NCBI GenBank assembly: GCA_046331125.1
Contig: JAXLRL010000005.1
Span: 64,923-128,922, forward strand
Source of the DNA: Acidimicrobiia bacterium
Lineage (GTDB): Bacteria; Actinomycetota; Acidimicrobiia; IMCC26256; DASPTH01
DNA: 64,000 bases
Direction of reading: 5' to 3'
In this document: positions 13,504-61,654 of the stretch, piece by piece
How positions within the stretch are numbered: position 1 is the stretch's first letter
Layout: each line of letters opens with the position of its first letter
Made by a program: the position numbers and the translations under genes
The notes under the pieces: model-generated
Database searches by the model: none
The model's input: the letters and a program-made list of their open reading frames with translations, nothing else
Told to the model about the DNA's origin: nothing

Positions 13504-13562
13504 GCGGGCGACCGTACCCACGCCCCGCAGGTCGCGGCAACCGCCCAAGTCCCAAACCCCCG

Positions 13563-13605
13563 ACGTTGCGTCACCTGCATCCGCCAGAGTTCAACGACGC
13601 AACGT
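13563..13605. repeat. 10-bp inverted repeat (acgttgcgtc ... gacgcaacgt) with a 23-nt spacer; possible terminator or operator
   Basis: Read directly from the sequence. It lies between the stop of the hydratase gene (13642) and the start of the monooxygenase gene (13503), both on the minus strand. Any function is inferred only. Confidence 0.35.
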
Positions 13606-13641
13606 GGAGGAGACGTGGAGGGGCAGGTCAGCGGAAGCGGC

Positions 13642-26015: not shown

Positions 26016-26059
26016 CCCACCCCCCTCGTTTTGGCGCTCCTGGCGCGTGAATATCACGC

Positions 26060-26084
26060 GGAACTGGCGCCAAAACGGGTCGTT
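26060..26084 (+). promoter_or_regulatory. ECF-sigma-type promoter GGAAC-N16-CGTT upstream of the ECF sigma gene
   Basis: GGAAC lies at 26060-26064 and CGTT at 26081-26084, with an exact 16-nt spacer, 20-40 nt upstream of the candidate start codons. This matches the consensus known for autoregulated actinobacterial ECF sigmas (SigE/SigH type). Confidence 0.5.
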
Positions 26085-56839: not shown

Positions 56840-57565
56840 ATGAGCGACGCTTCCTCTCCCACCGTCCTCGTCGACGACCACGAGCACGTCCGGCTCGTCA
56901 CCTTCAACCGACCCGAGGCGAAGAACGCGTTCGACCGCTCGATGTGGGAGGGCGCACACCGGGCGCTGCACGACGCGAGCCACGACGACGCCATCGGTGC
57001 CGTGGTCCTCACCGGTGCCGGCGACGCCTACACGGCGGGGGCCGACGTGAAGGCCATGGGCGATCCCGACGAACGACTCAAGAGCAAGGTCGCGTTCGAC
57101 GCGTTCCTCGCCACGCTCGAGTCGTTCCCCAAGCCGTTGATCGCCGCGGTGAACGGCGTCGCGGTGGGCATCGGCCTCACGATGCTCGCCCACTGCGACC
57201 TCGTCTTCGTGTCACGCACCGCCCGGCTGCGCGCGCCCTTCGCCTCCATGGGGCTGTCGCCCGAGGCGGGCAGCAGCGTCGCGCTCCCCCTGCGCATCGG
57301 GTGGCAGGCCACCGCGCATCTCTTCCTCTCCGCCGCGTGGCTCGACGCGCAGGAGGCGCTCGACCTCGGTCTCGCGTGGAAGGTGTGCGAGCCCGACACC
57401 CTGCTCGACGAGACGCTCGTCGAGGCGCGCCACATCGCGGCGATGCCCGTCGCATCGCTCGTCGCCACCAAGCAGCTCATGCTCGCCGGTCGTCTCGACG
57501 CCGTGCGCGCCGCCCGCGCCCGCGAGGGCGAAGTCTTCCGCCGCCTCCTCGAAGCCCGCGACTGA
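56840..57565 (+). CDS. enoyl-CoA hydratase/isomerase family protein
   Basis: Intact 241-aa ORF with LVTFNRPEAKNAF..VVLTGAGDAYTAGADV..PLIAAVNGVAVGIG. Confidence 0.85.
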   Translation: MSDASSPTVLVDDHEHVRLVTFNRPEAKNAFDRSMWEGAHRALHDASHDDAIGAVVLTGAGDAYTAGADVKAMGDPDERLKSKVAFDAFLATLESFPKPLIAAVNGVAVGIGLTMLAHCDLVFVSRTARLRAPFASMGLSPEAGSSVALPLRIGWQATAHLFLSAAWLDAQEALDLGLAWKVCEPDTLLDETLVEARHIAAMPVASLVATKQLMLAGRLDAVRAARAREGEVFRRLLEARD

Positions 57566-57567
57566 AT

Positions 57568-57618
57568 CCTTCATGCGTCAATCAGGTCGACATATCCGGA
57601 CCGATTGACGCATGAAGG
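57568..57618. repeat. 51-bp hairpin element, copy A (perfect 16-bp stem, 19-nt loop)
   Basis: Sequence is ccttcatgcgtcaatc / aggtcgacatatccggacc / gattgacgcatgaagg, and the arms are exact reverse complements. It begins 2 nt after the hydratase stop. Confidence 0.9.
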
Positions 57619-58523
57619 GAGCGGGCGGCGCGGATCATCGCTACGACGTGGTCGCCGCCGCTCTTGATGTCGGCAGCCGTGACGGAGATCACCGACCAGC
57701 CCAGTCCGACCAGGGCATTCCGACGGCGGCTGTCCCTGACGTGCGCCTTGTGGCCGGTGTGGTGCTCGTAACTGTCGTACTCGATCGCGACCTTCTGATC
57801 GGGGTACGCGGCGTCGACACGTGCGACGAACCGGTCTCCCGAACGCACCTCGTACTGGAACCTCGGCATCGGGAGCCGGTGACGGCGGAGCAACTGCTTC
57901 AGCCTGGTCTCCATGACGCTCTCGGTGACCGCCTCCTCCCCTCCATGACGGTCGAGCACCTGCCGGAGGACTCCGGCGCCGGGACGCCCCTTGACGCCGA
58001 GCCGGTCCAACAGCGAGCGCAGTGCGGCGACAGAGGTGAGGTGCCGTCGGAGCGCCGCGTCGAGTGCCAGCTCCACCGACGCGGGTGATGCAGCACCGAG
58101 CGACAACAGCGTCCGCTCCACCGTCATGCACGGAATGGAGTCCCGGACCGTCACATCGAGCGCATCGAGCGAGAGGGTCTCGTGCACCACGAGCGCCGTG
58201 AGCTGTGTCCGCCGCCATCGTCGGCACGTGATCTCGATCGTTCGCTCGGATCCGCCGGGGAGATCCCACAACCGAGCAGCGGACCGGTGCGACGCAACGC
58301 CCGGCCCCGGAGCTGCCAGGCACGCCGCGAGCACATTGCTCCGCCACGTCACGGGTGACCCGGCAACCCGGTAGACGGAGGGATACAACGGCAGAAGGCG
58401 ACGGGTGTTCACCCGATGACGGACGGCCGCCGGGGTCATGCCCGCGGACACGGCCTGCCGCATTGCGACGATCCCGTGCTGACGGGCCGCCAGGCGGGCG
58501 ACTGCTTGGTCGTCGGTTTCCAC
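57582..58523 (-). CDS. AbiEi-like wHTH + DUF559 (Vsr/PD-(D/E)xK-like) endonuclease-domain protein
   Basis: ORF 57582..58523 has the N-terminus VARLAARQHGIVAMRQAVSAGMTPAAVRHRVNTRRLLPLYPSVYRV and the C-terminus RVDAAYPDQKVAIEYDSYEHHTG..RDSRRRNALVGLGWSVISVTAADI, the pattern of the actinobacterial DUF559 family. The last 12 codons lie inside repeat copy A. Confidence 0.8.
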   Translation of the reverse strand: METDDQAVARLAARQHGIVAMRQAVSAGMTPAAVRHRVNTRRLLPLYPSVYRVAGSPVTWRSNVLAACLAAPGPGVASHRSAARLWDLPGGSERTIEITCRRWRRTQLTALVVHETLSLDALDVTVRDSIPCMTVERTLLSLGAASPASVELALDAALRRHLTSVAALRSLLDRLGVKGRPGAGVLRQVLDRHGGEEAVTESVMETRLKQLLRRHRLPMPRFQYEVRSGDRFVARVDAAYPDQKVAIEYDSYEHHTGHKAHVRDSRRRNALVGLGWSVISVTAADIKSGGDHVVAMIRAARSLHASIGPDMST

Positions 58524-58575
58524 CTCTGCAGCAACGATCGCCCCGCCGCGTCGTCACGCACTTCTCACCAACCCC

Positions 58576-58626
58576 CGTTCATGCGTCGATCAAGTCGACA
58601 TATCCGCACCGATTGACGCATGAAGG
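58576..58626. repeat. 51-bp hairpin element, copy B (14/16-bp stem)
   Basis: Sequence is cgttcatgcgtcgatc / aagtcgacatatccgcacc / gattgacgcatgaagg. It is 47/51 identical to copy A in direct orientation and ends 1 nt before the acyl-CoA synthetase stop codon. Confidence 0.9.
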
Positions 58627-58627
58627 G

Positions 58628-60204
58628 TCAGGCGAGGCGGTCCCAGGTGTCGGGGGCGATGCCCTGGGCCCGGAGCTCGTGCTTGCGCACGCGCATCGAC
58701 GCCTCGGTGCGCGGCAGGTCGTCGAGCATCCGCACGTAGCGCGGCACCATGAACTTCGGCATGCGGGAGTCGAGGAACTCCACGAACCCCGCGGGATCGA
58801 ACGCCTCCGGATCGGTGACGATCACCGCGACCAGCACCTCGTCCTCGCCCATCTCCGCGGGCACGCCGATCGCCGCGCACTCGACGACGCCGTCGTACTC
58901 CGACGCCATCGTCTCCACCTCGAACGACGAGATGTTCTCGCCCCGCCGGCGGATCGCGTCACGCATGCGGTCGACGAAGTAGAACCAGCCGTCGTCGTCG
59001 TAGCGGAACGCGTCACCGGTGTGGAACCAGCCGTTGCGCCACGCCTCGACCGTCGCCTCGGGCATCTTGTAGTACCCCATGTTGATCGACCACGGCTCGC
59101 GCGTGCGCACGACCAACTCGCCGATCTCGCCGGGGCCGAGGGGTTCGTCCCACTCGTTCACCACCCGCACCTCGGGCCACGGGTACGCGTCGCGCACGCG
59201 GCCGCAGTTGGCGGGCGGCCCGTGGTCGACGTCGGTCGTGACCGCCATCCCGGACTCCGTCTGCCCGTAGCCGGTGACGACCTGCACGCCGAAGCGACGC
59301 TCGAAGTCGTCCATCTCGGGGATCATCGGGCCCAGCAGGATGTACTCGAGCGGGTTGTCGGCGTCGTCGTCACGCGGCGGCGCGCTGTAGAGCACCGCGG
59401 TCATCGGACCGACGAGGCCGGCGATGCGGATGTCGTGCTCGCGCACGTCGTCCCAGAACGCGGTGGCGCTGAACTTCTCGCGGAACACGAAGCGCGCGCC
59501 CGCCGACATCGCGTAGTTGAACGCACCGCGGCCCGAGTTGTGGAACGTCCCCATCGACACGTAGAGGCCGTCGCCCGGCTGCGCGCCGCCACCCGGCACC
59601 CACGACCAGAACTGGTACATCAGCGCCCACGGCGTGATGACCGCCTTCGAGGGGCCCGTGGTGCCCGAGGTGAACATCAGCGAGTGGATGTCGCGGTACT
59701 CCGGGCCCGGTGAACGACACCGTCTCGGCCGACGCCACCGCCTCGACGTCGGCACCGTCGAGGCTCGGCGCGCGACACCACCCGCGGGCGCAGGCCGCGC
59801 GGCGCCTCGGCCTCGCCCAGCACCACGACGGTGTGCAGGTCGGGCAGGTCGTCGGCGACGTCGACGACCGCGTCGAGGAACTCGAGAGCGACGACCACCA
59901 CGGTGACGTCGGCGTGGGCCAGCAGTAGGCGAGGATCCGGCCGGTGGGCGCGGGGTTGAGCGGCACCTCGACCGCCTGGCCAGCCGAGTCCGGCATCGTG
60001 CGGTGACGTCGGGCCGGTTGGGAGCATCGTCGCGACGTGGTGGCCGCCGTCCCGCCGGGCGCTTCGAACGCCGAGGCCCAGTGGGCGCGTCGGCGTGGAG
60101 CCGGCGTAGGTGATCGGCGTGTCCCGACGGGCTGGAGGGCAACCGTGTCGGTCTCCTCGCGGCGGGCGACGGCGTGGGGGGCCAGGTGCGGGCAGGTCGA
60201 GCAT
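58628..60204 (-). pseudogene. AMP-dependent acyl-CoA synthetase/ligase (FadD-like); C-terminal two thirds intact, N-terminal third frameshifted
   Basis: This is the tail of ORF 58628..61312 (MFTSGTTGPSKAV, TGYGQTE, GWFHTGD, RMPKFMVPRYV). N-terminal blocks lie in ORFs 59370.. and 59677.. (LLAHADVTVVVVALEFLDAVVDVADDLPDLHTVVVLGEAEAP; GDHVATMLP). The start at ~60204 (MLDLPA) is approximate. Confidence 0.8.
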
Positions 60205-60277
60205 GGGAGGTAGTTGTATACGATCTGCAATCCACCCGCGGCACCGTCTCCCCGGCGTCGCCGCCACGACGAGTGCG

Positions 60278-61654
60278 GTGGACCTCGAACACCGACGAGC
60301 AGCAGTCGATCGTCGAGGTGTTCGGCGCCCTGGCCGACCGCTGGGCCCCACCCGCGGGCCTGCCAGGGCTGGGCGGGTTCGACGCCAAGGTCTGGAACAG
60401 CTCGATGACCGTAGGCGCGCCCGTCGCGCTGCTCCCGAGGCCGGCGGCGGAGGCAACCCTCTCCTCGACCTCGCCCTGGCGGTGGAGCGCTCGGCGCCCG
60501 TGACCCGGCTCGGTGGTCGAGCACGCCGTCGCCACCCGGCTCCTGGCCCGCGCCGGCGCCCTCTCCCCGACCTGGTGGAGGGCACCGATCGCCACCCTGG
60601 CGTTGCAGCCCGCGGTCGACGGCGTCGTCCGGCTGGCGCGCCGCAGGCGCGGTCGCCGATGTCGTCCTCGCCCTCGACGACCGTCTCGTGCCGCCGCCGG
60701 CGAGGCTCGAGGAGCGTCGCCACGCCCAACCTCGCCGTACTCCTCGCCGATCGCGACCTCGGCGGCGCGACCGTCCTCGCCGCCGGCGCCAGGCCGTTGC
60801 GCCGACGTGCTGGCGACAGTTGCCTGCGCCTGCTGTCGGGCGGCGCGGTGGCAGCCGGCTACACCAGGCCCGACTCCGGCTCCGACGTCGCCGCAGCGCG
60901 CACCGTGGCCCACTATGACGGCGACGGCTGGCGCATCAACGGCGCCAAGATGTTCACCTCCGTGGCCGAGGAGGCCACCGTGGTGCTGATGCTCCGCGCA
61001 CCGACCCCGACGTCCCCAGCACAAGGGCCTCACCTTCTTCCTCGTGCCGCTCGACACCGAGGGCGTGGAAGTCCAGCCCGTGTACACGTTGTCGAACAGC
61101 GCACCAACGCCACCTTCTACGACGACGTGTACGTGAGCGACGAGTGGCGTCGGCGGGCGAGGTGAACGAAGGGCTGGCAGGTGATGCTGGTCGCGCTGTC
61201 CTACGAACGGGGCGTGGCCGGCGGCGTGCGCGACGCGGAGCGCCTCCTCGTGAACGCCGAGGCGTACGCGCGTGACACCCTCGACGCCGACGGCCGCCCA
61301 CTCGTCGAGCAACCCGTGAAACGAGGCGCTGGCGAAACTCGCGGTCGACGTCGAGGTCGGCCGACCACCTCCTCGCCAGGCTCTGCGTGGGTCTCCGGCT
61401 CAGGGCGGCTCCCCGGCACCGAAGGCGCGCACGTGAAGCTGTTCGCCACCAGGAGCCGTCACCCGCGCCGCCAACGTGTTCATGGACCTCGCCGGGCCCG
61501 AGGAAGCCTGGAGCAGGGGCGACCCGCACGACGACCGCGCTCGCGTGTTCGAGTACTTCTGCCAGTTCTTGCGCCGGTCGCCACGGCGGCACCGGGCGAG
61601 ATCAGCGCCAACCTCGTCGCCCAGCGGCCTCGGCCTCCCCACCGCGGGCGCCAG
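60278..61654 (+). pseudogene. acyl-CoA dehydrogenase family protein (first of a tandem pair), many frame changes; boundaries approximate
   Basis: Fragments are VDLE / TDEQQSIVEVFGALADRWAPPAG..GGFDAKVWN; SGSDVAAARTVAHYDGDGWRINGAKMFTSVAEEATVVLML; NEGWQVMLVALSYERGVAGGV; and GEISANLVAQR near the end. Confidence 0.7.

Follow-up and report, generated by a model that had tools for sequence, protein, structure and literature searches.

The window analysed here is a 64,000-nucleotide stretch of DNA from an Acidimicrobiia bacterium. Within it, the convergent genes for an enoyl-CoA hydratase (ECH) and an acyl-CoA synthetase (ACS) are separated by a single gene that lies between two copies of a palindrome. 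The protein encoded by this gene joins an AbiEi-type winged helix-turn-helix (wHTH) module to a DUF559 nuclease domain. We will call the gene and its two palindromes the cassette, and we will argue that it belongs to a family of palindrome-plus-nuclease units. The features of the locus are as follows, where R1 is a covariance model of the palindrome that we used to scan the window and related loci.

56840..57565, + strand: ECH gene; boundary of the insertion, outside the element
57566..57620, no strand: downstream palindrome (copy A); R1 43.7 bits, E = 4.7e-11
57582..58523, - strand: cassette gene, 313 amino acids, AbiEi wHTH + DUF559; from Pfam, fold and the alignment of homologues
58524..58575, - strand: leader spacer of 52 nt, from the upstream palindrome to the start codon; from the spacer alignment of ~55 loci
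58574..58628, no strand: upstream palindrome (copy B); R1 43.5 bits, E = 5.5e-11; abuts the ACS stop codon
58628..60301, - strand: ACS gene (AMP-binding), 3' part; boundary of the insertion, outside the element

The two copies (57568-57618 for copy A and 58576-58626 for copy B) have the same orientation, with 4 mismatches over 51 positions (47/51 identical). A repeat search of the window pairs 57570-57619 with 58578-58627 at 94% identity, and the 49-mer occurs at only two sites in the 64 kb (the chance expectation is 0). Copy A has a 16-bp stem without a mismatch, while the stem of copy B is paired at 14/16 positions, or 15/17 if extended. Between the hairpin arms lie 19 nt that include GTCGAC. 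The folding free energies for the two strands are -38.5 and -33.8 kcal/mol for copy A (z = -6.4 and -5.5 versus shuffles) and -28.4 and -29.5 kcal/mol for copy B (z = -3.6 and -2.6).

The cassette fits tightly between its neighbours. Copy A begins 2 nt beyond the ECH stop codon (57563-57565), copy B stops 1 nt short of the ACS stop codon (58628-58630), and the copies are spaced 1008 nt apart. The sole credible gene between them is 57582-58523 on the minus strand, and its final ~12 codons and stop codon lie within copy A. A domain search detected no transposase or integrase domain and no HUH/Y1 tyrosine transposase domain; the domains of the cassette protein are AbiEi and DUF559. An earlier interpretation of this DNA (the sequence-only reading) had described the two hairpin repeats with their stems and loop, the insertion 2 nt and 1 nt from convergent stop codons, the lone gene with its tail in copy A, and the lack of a transposase or integrase. 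Alignment, folding against shuffles, coordinates, open reading frames (ORFs), Pfam and the domain search bear out each of these points.

The cassette protein appears to combine two known folds. Residues 1 to ~185 (nt ~57969-58523) form the AbiEi-type winged-helix module, and residues ~200-300 (nt ~57624-57924) are predicted to form a DUF559/Vsr-type PD-(D/E)xK nuclease domain. In Pfam, DUF559 (PF04480) matches residues 201-298 with 27.6 bits (cutoff 20.6), AbiEi_4 matches the N-terminus with 26.8 bits (cutoff 25), and MTES_1575 falls under its cutoff. The AbiEi profiles of PADLOC match residues 1-185 (4.6e-29). An AlphaFold model built with 27 homologues has a pLDDT of 90 and a pTM of 0.83. 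Foldseek matches the first two thirds of the model to an AbiEi antitoxin from S. agalactiae (6y8q, E = 8e-6). For the last third, it returns the catalytic domain of I-Bth0305I, a homing endonuclease (3r3p, TM 0.73, root-mean-square deviation 3.2 Å, 23% sequence identity), as well as the DUF559 protein NGO0050 (3hrl, TM 0.65) and Vsr (1vsr). D237, E248, and H255 are invariant across the 27 homologues and are putative counterparts of the catalytic residues of Vsr. The C-terminal tail, which is encoded by the downstream palindrome, is variable. The gene for the nucleotidyltransferase partner of AbiEi proteins, AbiEii (DUF1814), is absent: the sole neighbours are ECH and the AMP-binding synthetase. 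In contrast, AbiEii is present at a Rhodococcus locus (L102).

The palindrome and its link to the gene

The cassette protein has hundreds of relatives in Acidimicrobiia-type metagenomes. For instance, two relatives (L013, 60% identity, and L005, 68% identity) are sited between genes for a polysaccharide deacetylase and a DegT aminotransferase, and each has a 58-64-nt hairpin on both sides, with distances between the copies of 1003 and 1010 nt (1008 in the window). We then considered 80 loci that were picked by protein similarity alone (39-70% identity), of which 72 had enough flanking sequence. At each, the 235 nt around the start codon were aligned locally to the 260 nt around the stop codon; as a control, the upstream region of one locus was aligned to the downstream region of another (mean score 20, 99th percentile 31). 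A repeat pair scored above the control's 99th percentile in 64/72 loci, with scores of 32-107 and repeats of 42-88 nt. In these 64 loci, the upstream copy lies at -110 to -45 from the start codon, the downstream copy lies on or just past the stop codon, the spacing is ~990-1070 nt, and the repeats all fold as long hairpins. The proposal of the sequence-only reading that the hairpins and the DUF559 gene form a recurrent unit thus holds, and the enrichment of palindromes beside the genes (below) agrees.

By crude gene calls, 23/42 cassettes lie between convergent genes, and the downstream neighbour is convergent with the cassette in 35/42. The stop codons of the neighbours are mostly 0-10 nt from the palindromes. 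Since the empty form of the window's junction (described below) is only 3 nt long, this tight fit between stop codon and palindrome is at least partly due to selection against gene disruption. At one locus (L038:3643-3761), a tandem pair of family palindromes lies immediately upstream of the cassette gene.

Aligned on its dyad, the repeat is a 49-bp palindrome of fixed geometry, GTTTTGGCGTC-27 nt-GACGCCAAAAC. The gapless consensus reads (C)GTTTTGGCGTC, a 9-nt variable stem, an A/T-rich centre of ~9 nt (frequently GAATAG or GATATG), and the mirror image. The distance from the start of the GCG box to the centre is 18 nt in 73/128 copies and 17-19 nt in 106/128. GCG/CGC is invariant in the gapless alignment A2, which consists of 91 copies that were selected for carrying the GCG box. 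For the 22 proposed pairs, 83% of cells are paired, versus 35-41% if the partner is slid by 1-3 columns, and compensatory double changes occupy 461 cells, versus 171 ± 10 in shuffles. (The centre of each palindrome was picked by maximal pairing, which favours structure; the slid controls and the invariant box are independent of that choice.) Of the 421 cells that are not Watson-Crick pairs, 83 are G-U, which is about the chance level, and both strands are equally palindromic. This lack of G-U enrichment implies that the constraint is on a DNA palindrome that is valid on both strands. On the same grounds, we ruled out that the main constraint is a structure at the RNA level (a terminator or riboregulator).

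The window's copies are a variant of this family, of the subtype labelled TTCATGCGTC. Their outer arms are altered compensatorily to CTTCATGCGTC/GACGCATGAAG. The upstream palindrome has a 49-bp core with outer arms CTTCATGCGTC/GACGCATGAAC, and the GTG start codon follows 52 nt further on. A pattern scan for the window's stem (CATGCGTCNATC-N15-23-GATNGACGCATG) across 185,579 species genomes returned two matches, from a Planctomycetota metagenome-assembled genome and from Microbacterium indicum. Both are unrelated hairpins, which indicates that the exact sequence in the window is lineage-specific.

The 52-nt leader between the upstream palindrome and the start codon is probably the promoter or operator of the cassette. 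In the spacer alignment, the motif GCGTGAC is common to the window and its closest relatives, and many other loci have at the same place a leader that is conserved clade by clade, TGTCAYACC...TGGGAT-N7-ATG. At ~30 loci (such as L067:598-655 and L036:116-162), TGTCAYACC-N7-10-TGGGAT/TGCACT ends ~7 nt before the ATG or GTG. The conserved leader motif may be the cassette's own promoter, possibly with a leaderless mRNA, or it may be an extra protein-binding site.

The arms of the palindrome co-vary with the protein. Across 1452 pairs of loci with unrelated flanks, the identity of the 13-nt outer half-sites rises with the identity of the proteins (Spearman's rho = 0.67; 0/500 label permutations reach this value). 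Half-site identity is 0.38 at 30-40% protein identity and ~0.8 beyond 60%, and the most divergent protein clades have other boxes, such as GATCTGTGCG or GTTCTCGTAAC. Because the palindromes share a consensus and a geometry, and because their arms diverge together with the protein regardless of context, they seem to belong to the element and not to the target. The best explanation is that the palindrome is the predicted cognate site of the protein, rather than a host sequence.

The inner stem and the centre change much faster than the outer arms. For instance, the orthologous cassettes at L061 and L067 encode proteins that are 85% identical, and the inner 27 nt of their palindromes are only 48% identical, which is near random. 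Within each of these loci, the two copies resemble one another. The two palindromes of a pair evolve in concert.

Family palindromes also occur on their own. R1 identifies four sites in the window: the two flanking copies and two solitary ones.

26025..26079, no strand: solitary palindrome of another subtype (CGTTTTGGCGCTCC...GGCGCCAAAACG); R1 42.8 bits, outside the training set
13559..13609, no strand: degenerate solitary palindrome, outer arms ACGTTGCGTC...GACGCAACGT; R1 24 bits, E = 6e-5

The palindrome at 26025-26079 lies 10 nt past the stop codon of its upstream gene. It has the GGCGCTCC box subtype, which is also found at the ECH-ACS junction of two relatives (L097 and L094) and around the cassette of another locus, L016. 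It is 91% identical over 54 nt to a flanking palindrome of L016, where the cassette gene is 60% identical. This suggests that the source genome carries a second type of cassette, beyond the window. L016 itself is not an occupied allele of the solitary site, as the flanks are unrelated. In the degenerate copy at 13559-13609, the inner part of the palindrome no longer pairs.

When we ran R1 on 422 kb of related loci, nearly all of the matches fell at the two expected sites. A stricter home-made scan gave 85 matches in 20.5 kb of cassette-adjacent sequence and 6 in the other 370 kb; five shuffles gave 1 match. Among the 6 distant matches, 3 are clear solitary copies and 2 are downstream copies of truncated matches. 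Family palindromes are ~380-fold enriched beside cassette genes relative to the rest of the same contigs. The palindrome thus occurs beyond the window's site without being a generic, abundant repeat: it accompanies these genes, and copies on their own are rare. By its own account, either of two other outcomes would have told against the proposal of the sequence-only reading (a hairpin found only here, or a generic repeat that is not enriched near DUF559 genes). In two related genomes, solitary palindromes lie at orthologous positions ~5.8 kb upstream of the cassette (L058:74-128 and L064:58-112); they have the same outer arms (GATGCGT...ACGCATC) and wholly unlike inner sequences.

Similar units are present beyond the Acidimicrobiia. 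By a profile search, the family comprises 5,617 clusters (50% identity) if E ≤ 1e-30 is required, or 20,531 with E ≤ 1e-10. In Tsukamurella tyrosinosolvens NCTC13231, a DUF559 gene lies between two 64-nt palindromes (ACATCTTTCGAAGCGTTCTG...) that are 951 nt apart, and in Arthrobacter sp. StoSoilB13, a homologue lies between two 57-nt palindromes that are 1049 nt apart. These homologues, which come from complete assemblies, are 27-31% identical to the window's protein, and their palindromes have other sequences. The Tsukamurella palindrome has ~9 sites in the genome, of which 2 are the flanking copies and ~7 are solitary. We inspected three of the solitary copies, and all of them lie between convergent genes and touch a stop codon. 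Across the Tsukamurella copies, the arms are conserved and the centres are hypervariable. The Arthrobacter palindrome has five copies in its genome (the pair and 3 others). A second paralogue from Tsukamurella (L107, NZ_LR134451.1) has 72-nt inverted terminal repeats (1106-1177 and 2113-2184, 78% complementary) in place of two full palindromes, and partial copies of these are found elsewhere in the genome. No repeat pair was found at a locus from Nonomuraea (L103), and the matches from Rhodococcus were ruled out as cassettes, as they are ordinary AbiEi-AbiEii pairs. We found no relatives in the viral contigs of IMG/VR. In plasmids, we found none at E = 1e-10 and only distant ones at 1e-3.

The ECH-ACS junction and the arrangement of the arms

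To see how the window's site looks in related genomes, we used close orthologs of ECH, which gave five contigs that extend to the junction, and we confirmed the number of palindromes with the covariance model. The site is polymorphic: it is empty in L095 and L098, has a solitary palindrome in L097, and is occupied in the window, L096, and L099. This presence/absence polymorphism at one site is what is expected of a homing gene. In L095 and L098 (ECH 83-84% identical), the stop codons are 3 nt apart (TGA-CCC-CTA), and both the palindrome and the cassette are absent. The closest relative, L097 (ECH 91% identical), has a single palindrome, of the GGCGCTCC subtype, which is separated from the ACS stop codon by 10 nt (GGCATGAACG). 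L096 and L099 (ECH 89% identical) have a cassette whose protein is 76% identical to the window's. In L094 (ECH 79% identical), a palindrome of the GGCGCTCC subtype comes straight after the ECH stop codon, and the contig ends 6 nt later. In the palindrome-bearing alleles that reach the end of ACS, ACS lacks its last codon and has its TCA stop at the edge of the inserted DNA; in the window, the last codon and the stop codon of ACS are unlike those of the empty-site alleles.

Given the hairpin-free alleles, the ancestral junction had no hairpin, and the palindromes came with the inserted DNA. The site has been remodelled more than once since then. The 10-nt stretch in L097 (786-795, GGCATGAACG) resembles the outer right arm of a window-type palindrome (GACGCATGAAGG) and has the appearance of a remnant of a TTCATG-type arm, which would be left if replacement from within had removed an older palindrome or cassette.

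The contigs that carry close orthologs of ECH (P0121-P0129) are all only 1-4 kb long, and several (such as L094) break off at the palindrome or just past it. Probably, the palindrome pair or the presence/absence polymorphism of the cassette breaks short-read assemblies. In P0129, the C-terminus of ECH is frameshifted and reads through the palindrome (...LTLHASLMRRYPRCLTPKA...), which shows how an annotation may mistake the palindrome for part of the neighbour's coding sequence. The ACS gene of the window (58628-60729, minus strand) also appears to be frameshifted. The AMP-binding C-terminal part shares its frame with the ORF at 58628-61312, the upstream half of which is Arg/Pro-rich nonsense; a stretch that looks N-terminal (ADVTVVVVALEFLDAVVDVADDL...) shares its frame with the ORF at 59677-60729; and the Pfam match covers profile positions 152-384 only. 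This frameshift is either an assembly error or a sign that ACS is a pseudogene.

The two palindromes of a cassette are related in several ways. We used imperfections in the palindromes to trace their arms in 53 non-redundant loci, 34 of which were informative. By swapped arms we mean that the upstream copy's left arm can pair with the downstream copy's right arm, and that the two inner arms can pair as well. The configurations are as follows.

Arms direct, loop direct: 17 loci (imperfect palindromes)
Arms direct, loop inverted: 1 locus
Arms swapped, loop direct: 9 loci
Arms swapped, loop inverted: 7 loci
Arms uninformative: 19 loci (loop direct in 14, inverted in 1, ambiguous in 4)

The swapped signature (upstream copy x-c-y', downstream copy y-c-x') is thus found in 16/34 informative loci. 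It is clearest in L024, with 3 mismatches if the arms are swapped versus 12 if they are direct, and with an identical centre (AATAGTT). This form would result if DNA of the form y-c-y' was joined into a resident x-c-x' palindrome at the centre c, either by cutting and rejoining or by repair synthesis that was primed from the arms. We infer that gene conversion, flipping of whole palindromes, and quasipalindrome template-switch repair probably contribute as well.

Most of the cassettes whose proteins are at least 72% identical share their flanking genes. Where pairs are collinear, conservation of the cassette is close to that of its neighbours (the median difference is 10 points, with the flanks higher), which implies that these cassettes have persisted for a long time and are under purifying selection. 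Some cassettes depart from this pattern. Between the L058/L064 and L068 groups, the proteins are 77-78% identical, and the contexts are unrelated. L017 and L033 have cassettes at one site in opposite orientations; the cassettes are 65% identical, and the flanks are 87% identical. Similarly, L079 has the opposite orientation from L024, L053, L069, and L070 at the same site, with 40-46% identity for the cassettes and 66-75% for the flanks. The unrelated contexts, along with opposite orientations of divergent cassettes, point to replacement or to independent insertion at one site.

Interpretation and alternatives

The best explanation for these observations is a unit of ~1.06 kb that is common in Actinomycetota and consists of a ~49-bp palindrome, a leader of ~50 nt, a gene for an AbiEi + Vsr/DUF559 protein, and a second palindrome at the stop codon. 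Both the unit and the solitary palindromes of its family would come and go, by insertion and loss, in the few bases that separate the ends of genes, chiefly those of convergent genes. We put a probability of about 0.6 on the overall reading: that this is a widespread actinobacterial palindrome-plus-nuclease system, similar to REPIN/RAYT or to homing endonucleases, which is mostly inherited vertically, with insertion, loss, replacement, or flipping from time to time.

Computation shows how the unit is built and conserved, that half-sites and protein co-vary, that the junction is polymorphic, that some palindromes stand alone, that orientations change, and which folds the protein resembles; we infer the binding, the position of cleavage, and the chemistry of transposition. 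In the proposed mechanism, a dimer of the protein would bind the outer half-sites (GTTTTGGCGTC, 27 bp apart) with its AbiEi winged helices, and the two Vsr-like domains would act on the A/T-rich centre. Such a dimer would suit a dyad of 49-55 bp, and the proposal follows two precedents: the binding of inverted repeats by AbiEi proteins (PMC7319586) and the cutting of a pseudopalindrome at its centre by I-Bth0305I (PMC3239194). Breakage and rejoining, or break-induced copying, at the centres of palindromes could then lead to insertion into a resident palindrome or to excision that leaves one palindrome, and in either orientation. The palindromes would probably also act as bidirectional terminators, which would keep the insertion harmless.

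A stronger claim is that AbiEi-DUF559 cassettes are an unrecognised class of actinobacterial mobile elements or domesticated replicators: a non-HUH analogue of REP (repetitive extragenic palindrome)/RAYT systems that cuts its cognate ~50-bp palindrome at the centre and thereby inserts, excises, or flips. This is tentative, and we would not give it even odds. If true, this would explain why DUF559 genes are multi-copy in Actinomycetota (thousands of clusters), why junctions have swapped arms, why some palindromes are solitary, and why palindrome centres are hypervariable.

Several observations count against our preferred reading. First, the comparison data are mostly metagenomic contigs. Second, the co-divergence of half-sites and proteins is also expected if the palindrome and the protein are merely inherited together in diverging hosts. 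Third, no single simple reaction covers all of the arm configurations, as the copies are fully inverted in 7 loci and are imperfect direct duplicates in 17. Also, we predicted swapped arms for the upstream copy of L099 (arms CTTTCGG.../...CATGAAG), and this prediction failed: all four arms differ. Fourth, most of the cassettes keep conserved positions, and their rate of evolution is about as low as that of the neighbouring genes, which implies that mobility is rare and that a benefit to the host is possible. Fifth, both flanking palindromes are intact, while classical homing predicts otherwise. Finally, the 64-kb window has no solitary copy of the cassette's own subtype; both of its solitary copies are of other subtypes.

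Two alternatives deserve the most attention, and we consider each of them unlikely, to the same degree. In the first, the gene is a non-mobile, self-regulated host or defence gene (a fused AbiEi-nuclease that acts as a single-chain toxin-antitoxin or effector). The upstream palindrome would be its operator and the downstream palindrome its terminator, with gain and loss of the gene and gene conversion between the copies. AbiEi proteins bind inverted repeats at their own promoters and autoregulate, according to PMC7319586, so the strong AbiEi matches fit this idea, as do the conserved motif upstream of the start codon and the prevalence of conserved sites under purifying selection. But the AbiEii partner gene is absent, and there would be no reason for an operator-like site at the 3' end to keep pace with the upstream one. 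Nor would this explain the solitary palindromes at the ends of unrelated genes, the base-precise insertion between stop codons, the swapped arms, or the occupancy of one site by divergent cassettes in both orientations.

In the second, the cassette is a classical free-standing homing gene that cuts the cassette-less allele, be it an empty site or a solitary palindrome, and is copied into it from an occupied allele by recombinational repair, so that it would spread at the same locus without transposition. Among characterised enzymes, I-Bth0305I is structurally the closest to the nuclease domain; the ECH-ACS junction has occupied, solitary, and empty alleles; most copies are site-stable; and swapped arms would suit copying that is primed from the arms of a cut resident palindrome. 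On the other hand, a homing gene is expected to destroy its target, and the occupied allele retains two intact copies of the presumed target, while the hairpin-free empty sites have no recognisable target. Related cassettes are also found at unrelated loci, and solitary copies are dispersed around the genome.

The sequence-only reading had favoured a third explanation: one ancestral bidirectional terminator that was duplicated around the insert. In this scenario, the nuclease would cut a resident host hairpin at its base, and the pair would be a target-site duplication of ~50 nt. We now consider this quite improbable. The scenario does fit the direct orientation of the window's copies (92% identical), the 17 loci with directly duplicated imperfect hairpins, and the location of cassettes at the 3' ends of genes, where terminators are expected. 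An orthologous junction with a single hairpin had been named beforehand as decisive, and one exists (L097); yet its hairpin is of a different subtype from the window's and is not the parent of the window's copies, and L095 and L098 have no hairpin at all in the 3 nt between their stop codons. Furthermore, hairpins at unrelated sites share a consensus and a geometry and co-vary with the protein, and the swapped or inverted configurations in 16 loci are impossible by duplication of a staggered cut.

The hairpins also do not look like intrinsic terminators. Neither is followed by a T-run on either strand, and their stems of 22-24 bp with an AT-rich centre are unlike the short GC-rich stem of an intrinsic terminator. 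Within 57400-58800, no Rfam covariance model matched at E ≤ 1. The palindromes may terminate transcription without a U-tract.

Lastly, it is very improbable that the palindromes serve as inverted repeats for a programmed inversion of the gene segment (an invertible switch): orthologous sites do have cassettes in opposite orientations, but those cassettes are far more divergent than their flanks, which indicates replacement or independent insertion, no invertase is encoded, and inversion would alter no coding sequence except for the last few codons. According to one table in PMC9881135, DUF559 domain-containing proteins are 14-fold enriched among predicted targets of programmed inversion. This is expected if inverted repeats that overlap the 3' ends of DUF559 genes are common, and it is possibly a by-product of the palindrome pairs.

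In the non-subscription literature that we searched, we found no description of a palindrome-bracketed AbiEi-DUF559 unit, of which the table in PMC9881135 is the sole indirect trace, and none of a REP-like repeat system in high-GC Gram-positives, which this would be. Members of the family are currently annotated only as "DUF559 domain-containing," "very-short-patch-repair endonuclease," or "AbiEi antitoxin." A fixed unit of gene and palindromes, with solitary palindromes at gene ends, gives this very large family a biology that can be tested, and Tsukamurella and Arthrobacter are cultivable carriers. Because the half-sites co-vary with the protein, the family might provide a new nuclease scaffold with long, sequence-programmable sites. 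The cassette also matters for annotation: it alters the C-terminus of a neighbouring gene, and it likely breaks metagenome assemblies.

Comparison with known systems

The closest parallel in organisation is with the REP/REPIN-RAYT systems of Proteobacteria (REPtrons), a resemblance that was suggested from the window alone and that holds at this level, including the solitary cognate palindromes that are scattered in the Tsukamurella genome. In both systems, a single gene lies between copies of its cognate palindromic repeat, solitary repeats are found, as in Tsukamurella, in extragenic space at gene ends, inheritance is mostly vertical with long persistence, and paralogues have distinct classes of repeats (two in Tsukamurella). 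But the enzyme of the cassette is an AbiEi winged helix joined to a Vsr/DUF559 PD-(D/E)xK domain, not a Y1/HUH transposase. Its repeat is a palindrome of 49-64 bp with conserved outer arms, a hypervariable centre, and no GTAG head. Solitary copies number a few per genome instead of hundreds, no REPIN-type doublets were seen, and the host range is Actinomycetota.

The EDxHD homing endonucleases, such as I-Bth0305I, likewise combine a Vsr-like catalytic domain with a separate DNA-binding part. I-Bth0305I is a multidomain homodimer with a footprint of ~60 bp, and it cuts the centre of a pseudopalindromic target (PMC3239194); the size and symmetry of our palindrome agree with this. Free-standing homing genes also show presence/absence polymorphism at a fixed site. 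Unlike I-Bth0305I, the cassette is outside of introns and phages, and its presumed target is intact on both sides of the gene and also occurs on its own.

The N-terminal ~185 residues match the AbiEi antitoxin of the type IV AbiE systems, by profile and by fold. In contrast to AbiE, the cassette has no AbiEii gene, its nuclease domain is fused, and its inverted-repeat site is doubled at the 3' end of the gene and dispersed in the genome.

Finally, IS200/IS605 elements, other hairpin-recognising single-strand transposons, miniature inverted-repeat transposable elements, and solo long terminal repeats resemble the cassette in having ends that are defined by hairpins or in leaving behind solitary copies that are derived from the ends. 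The cassette differs from them in that it has no HUH or DDE transposase and no TnpB, and the same full palindrome is present at both of its ends. Also, its dyad half-sites and its lack of G-U enrichment suit the recognition of duplex DNA as well as of a hairpin.

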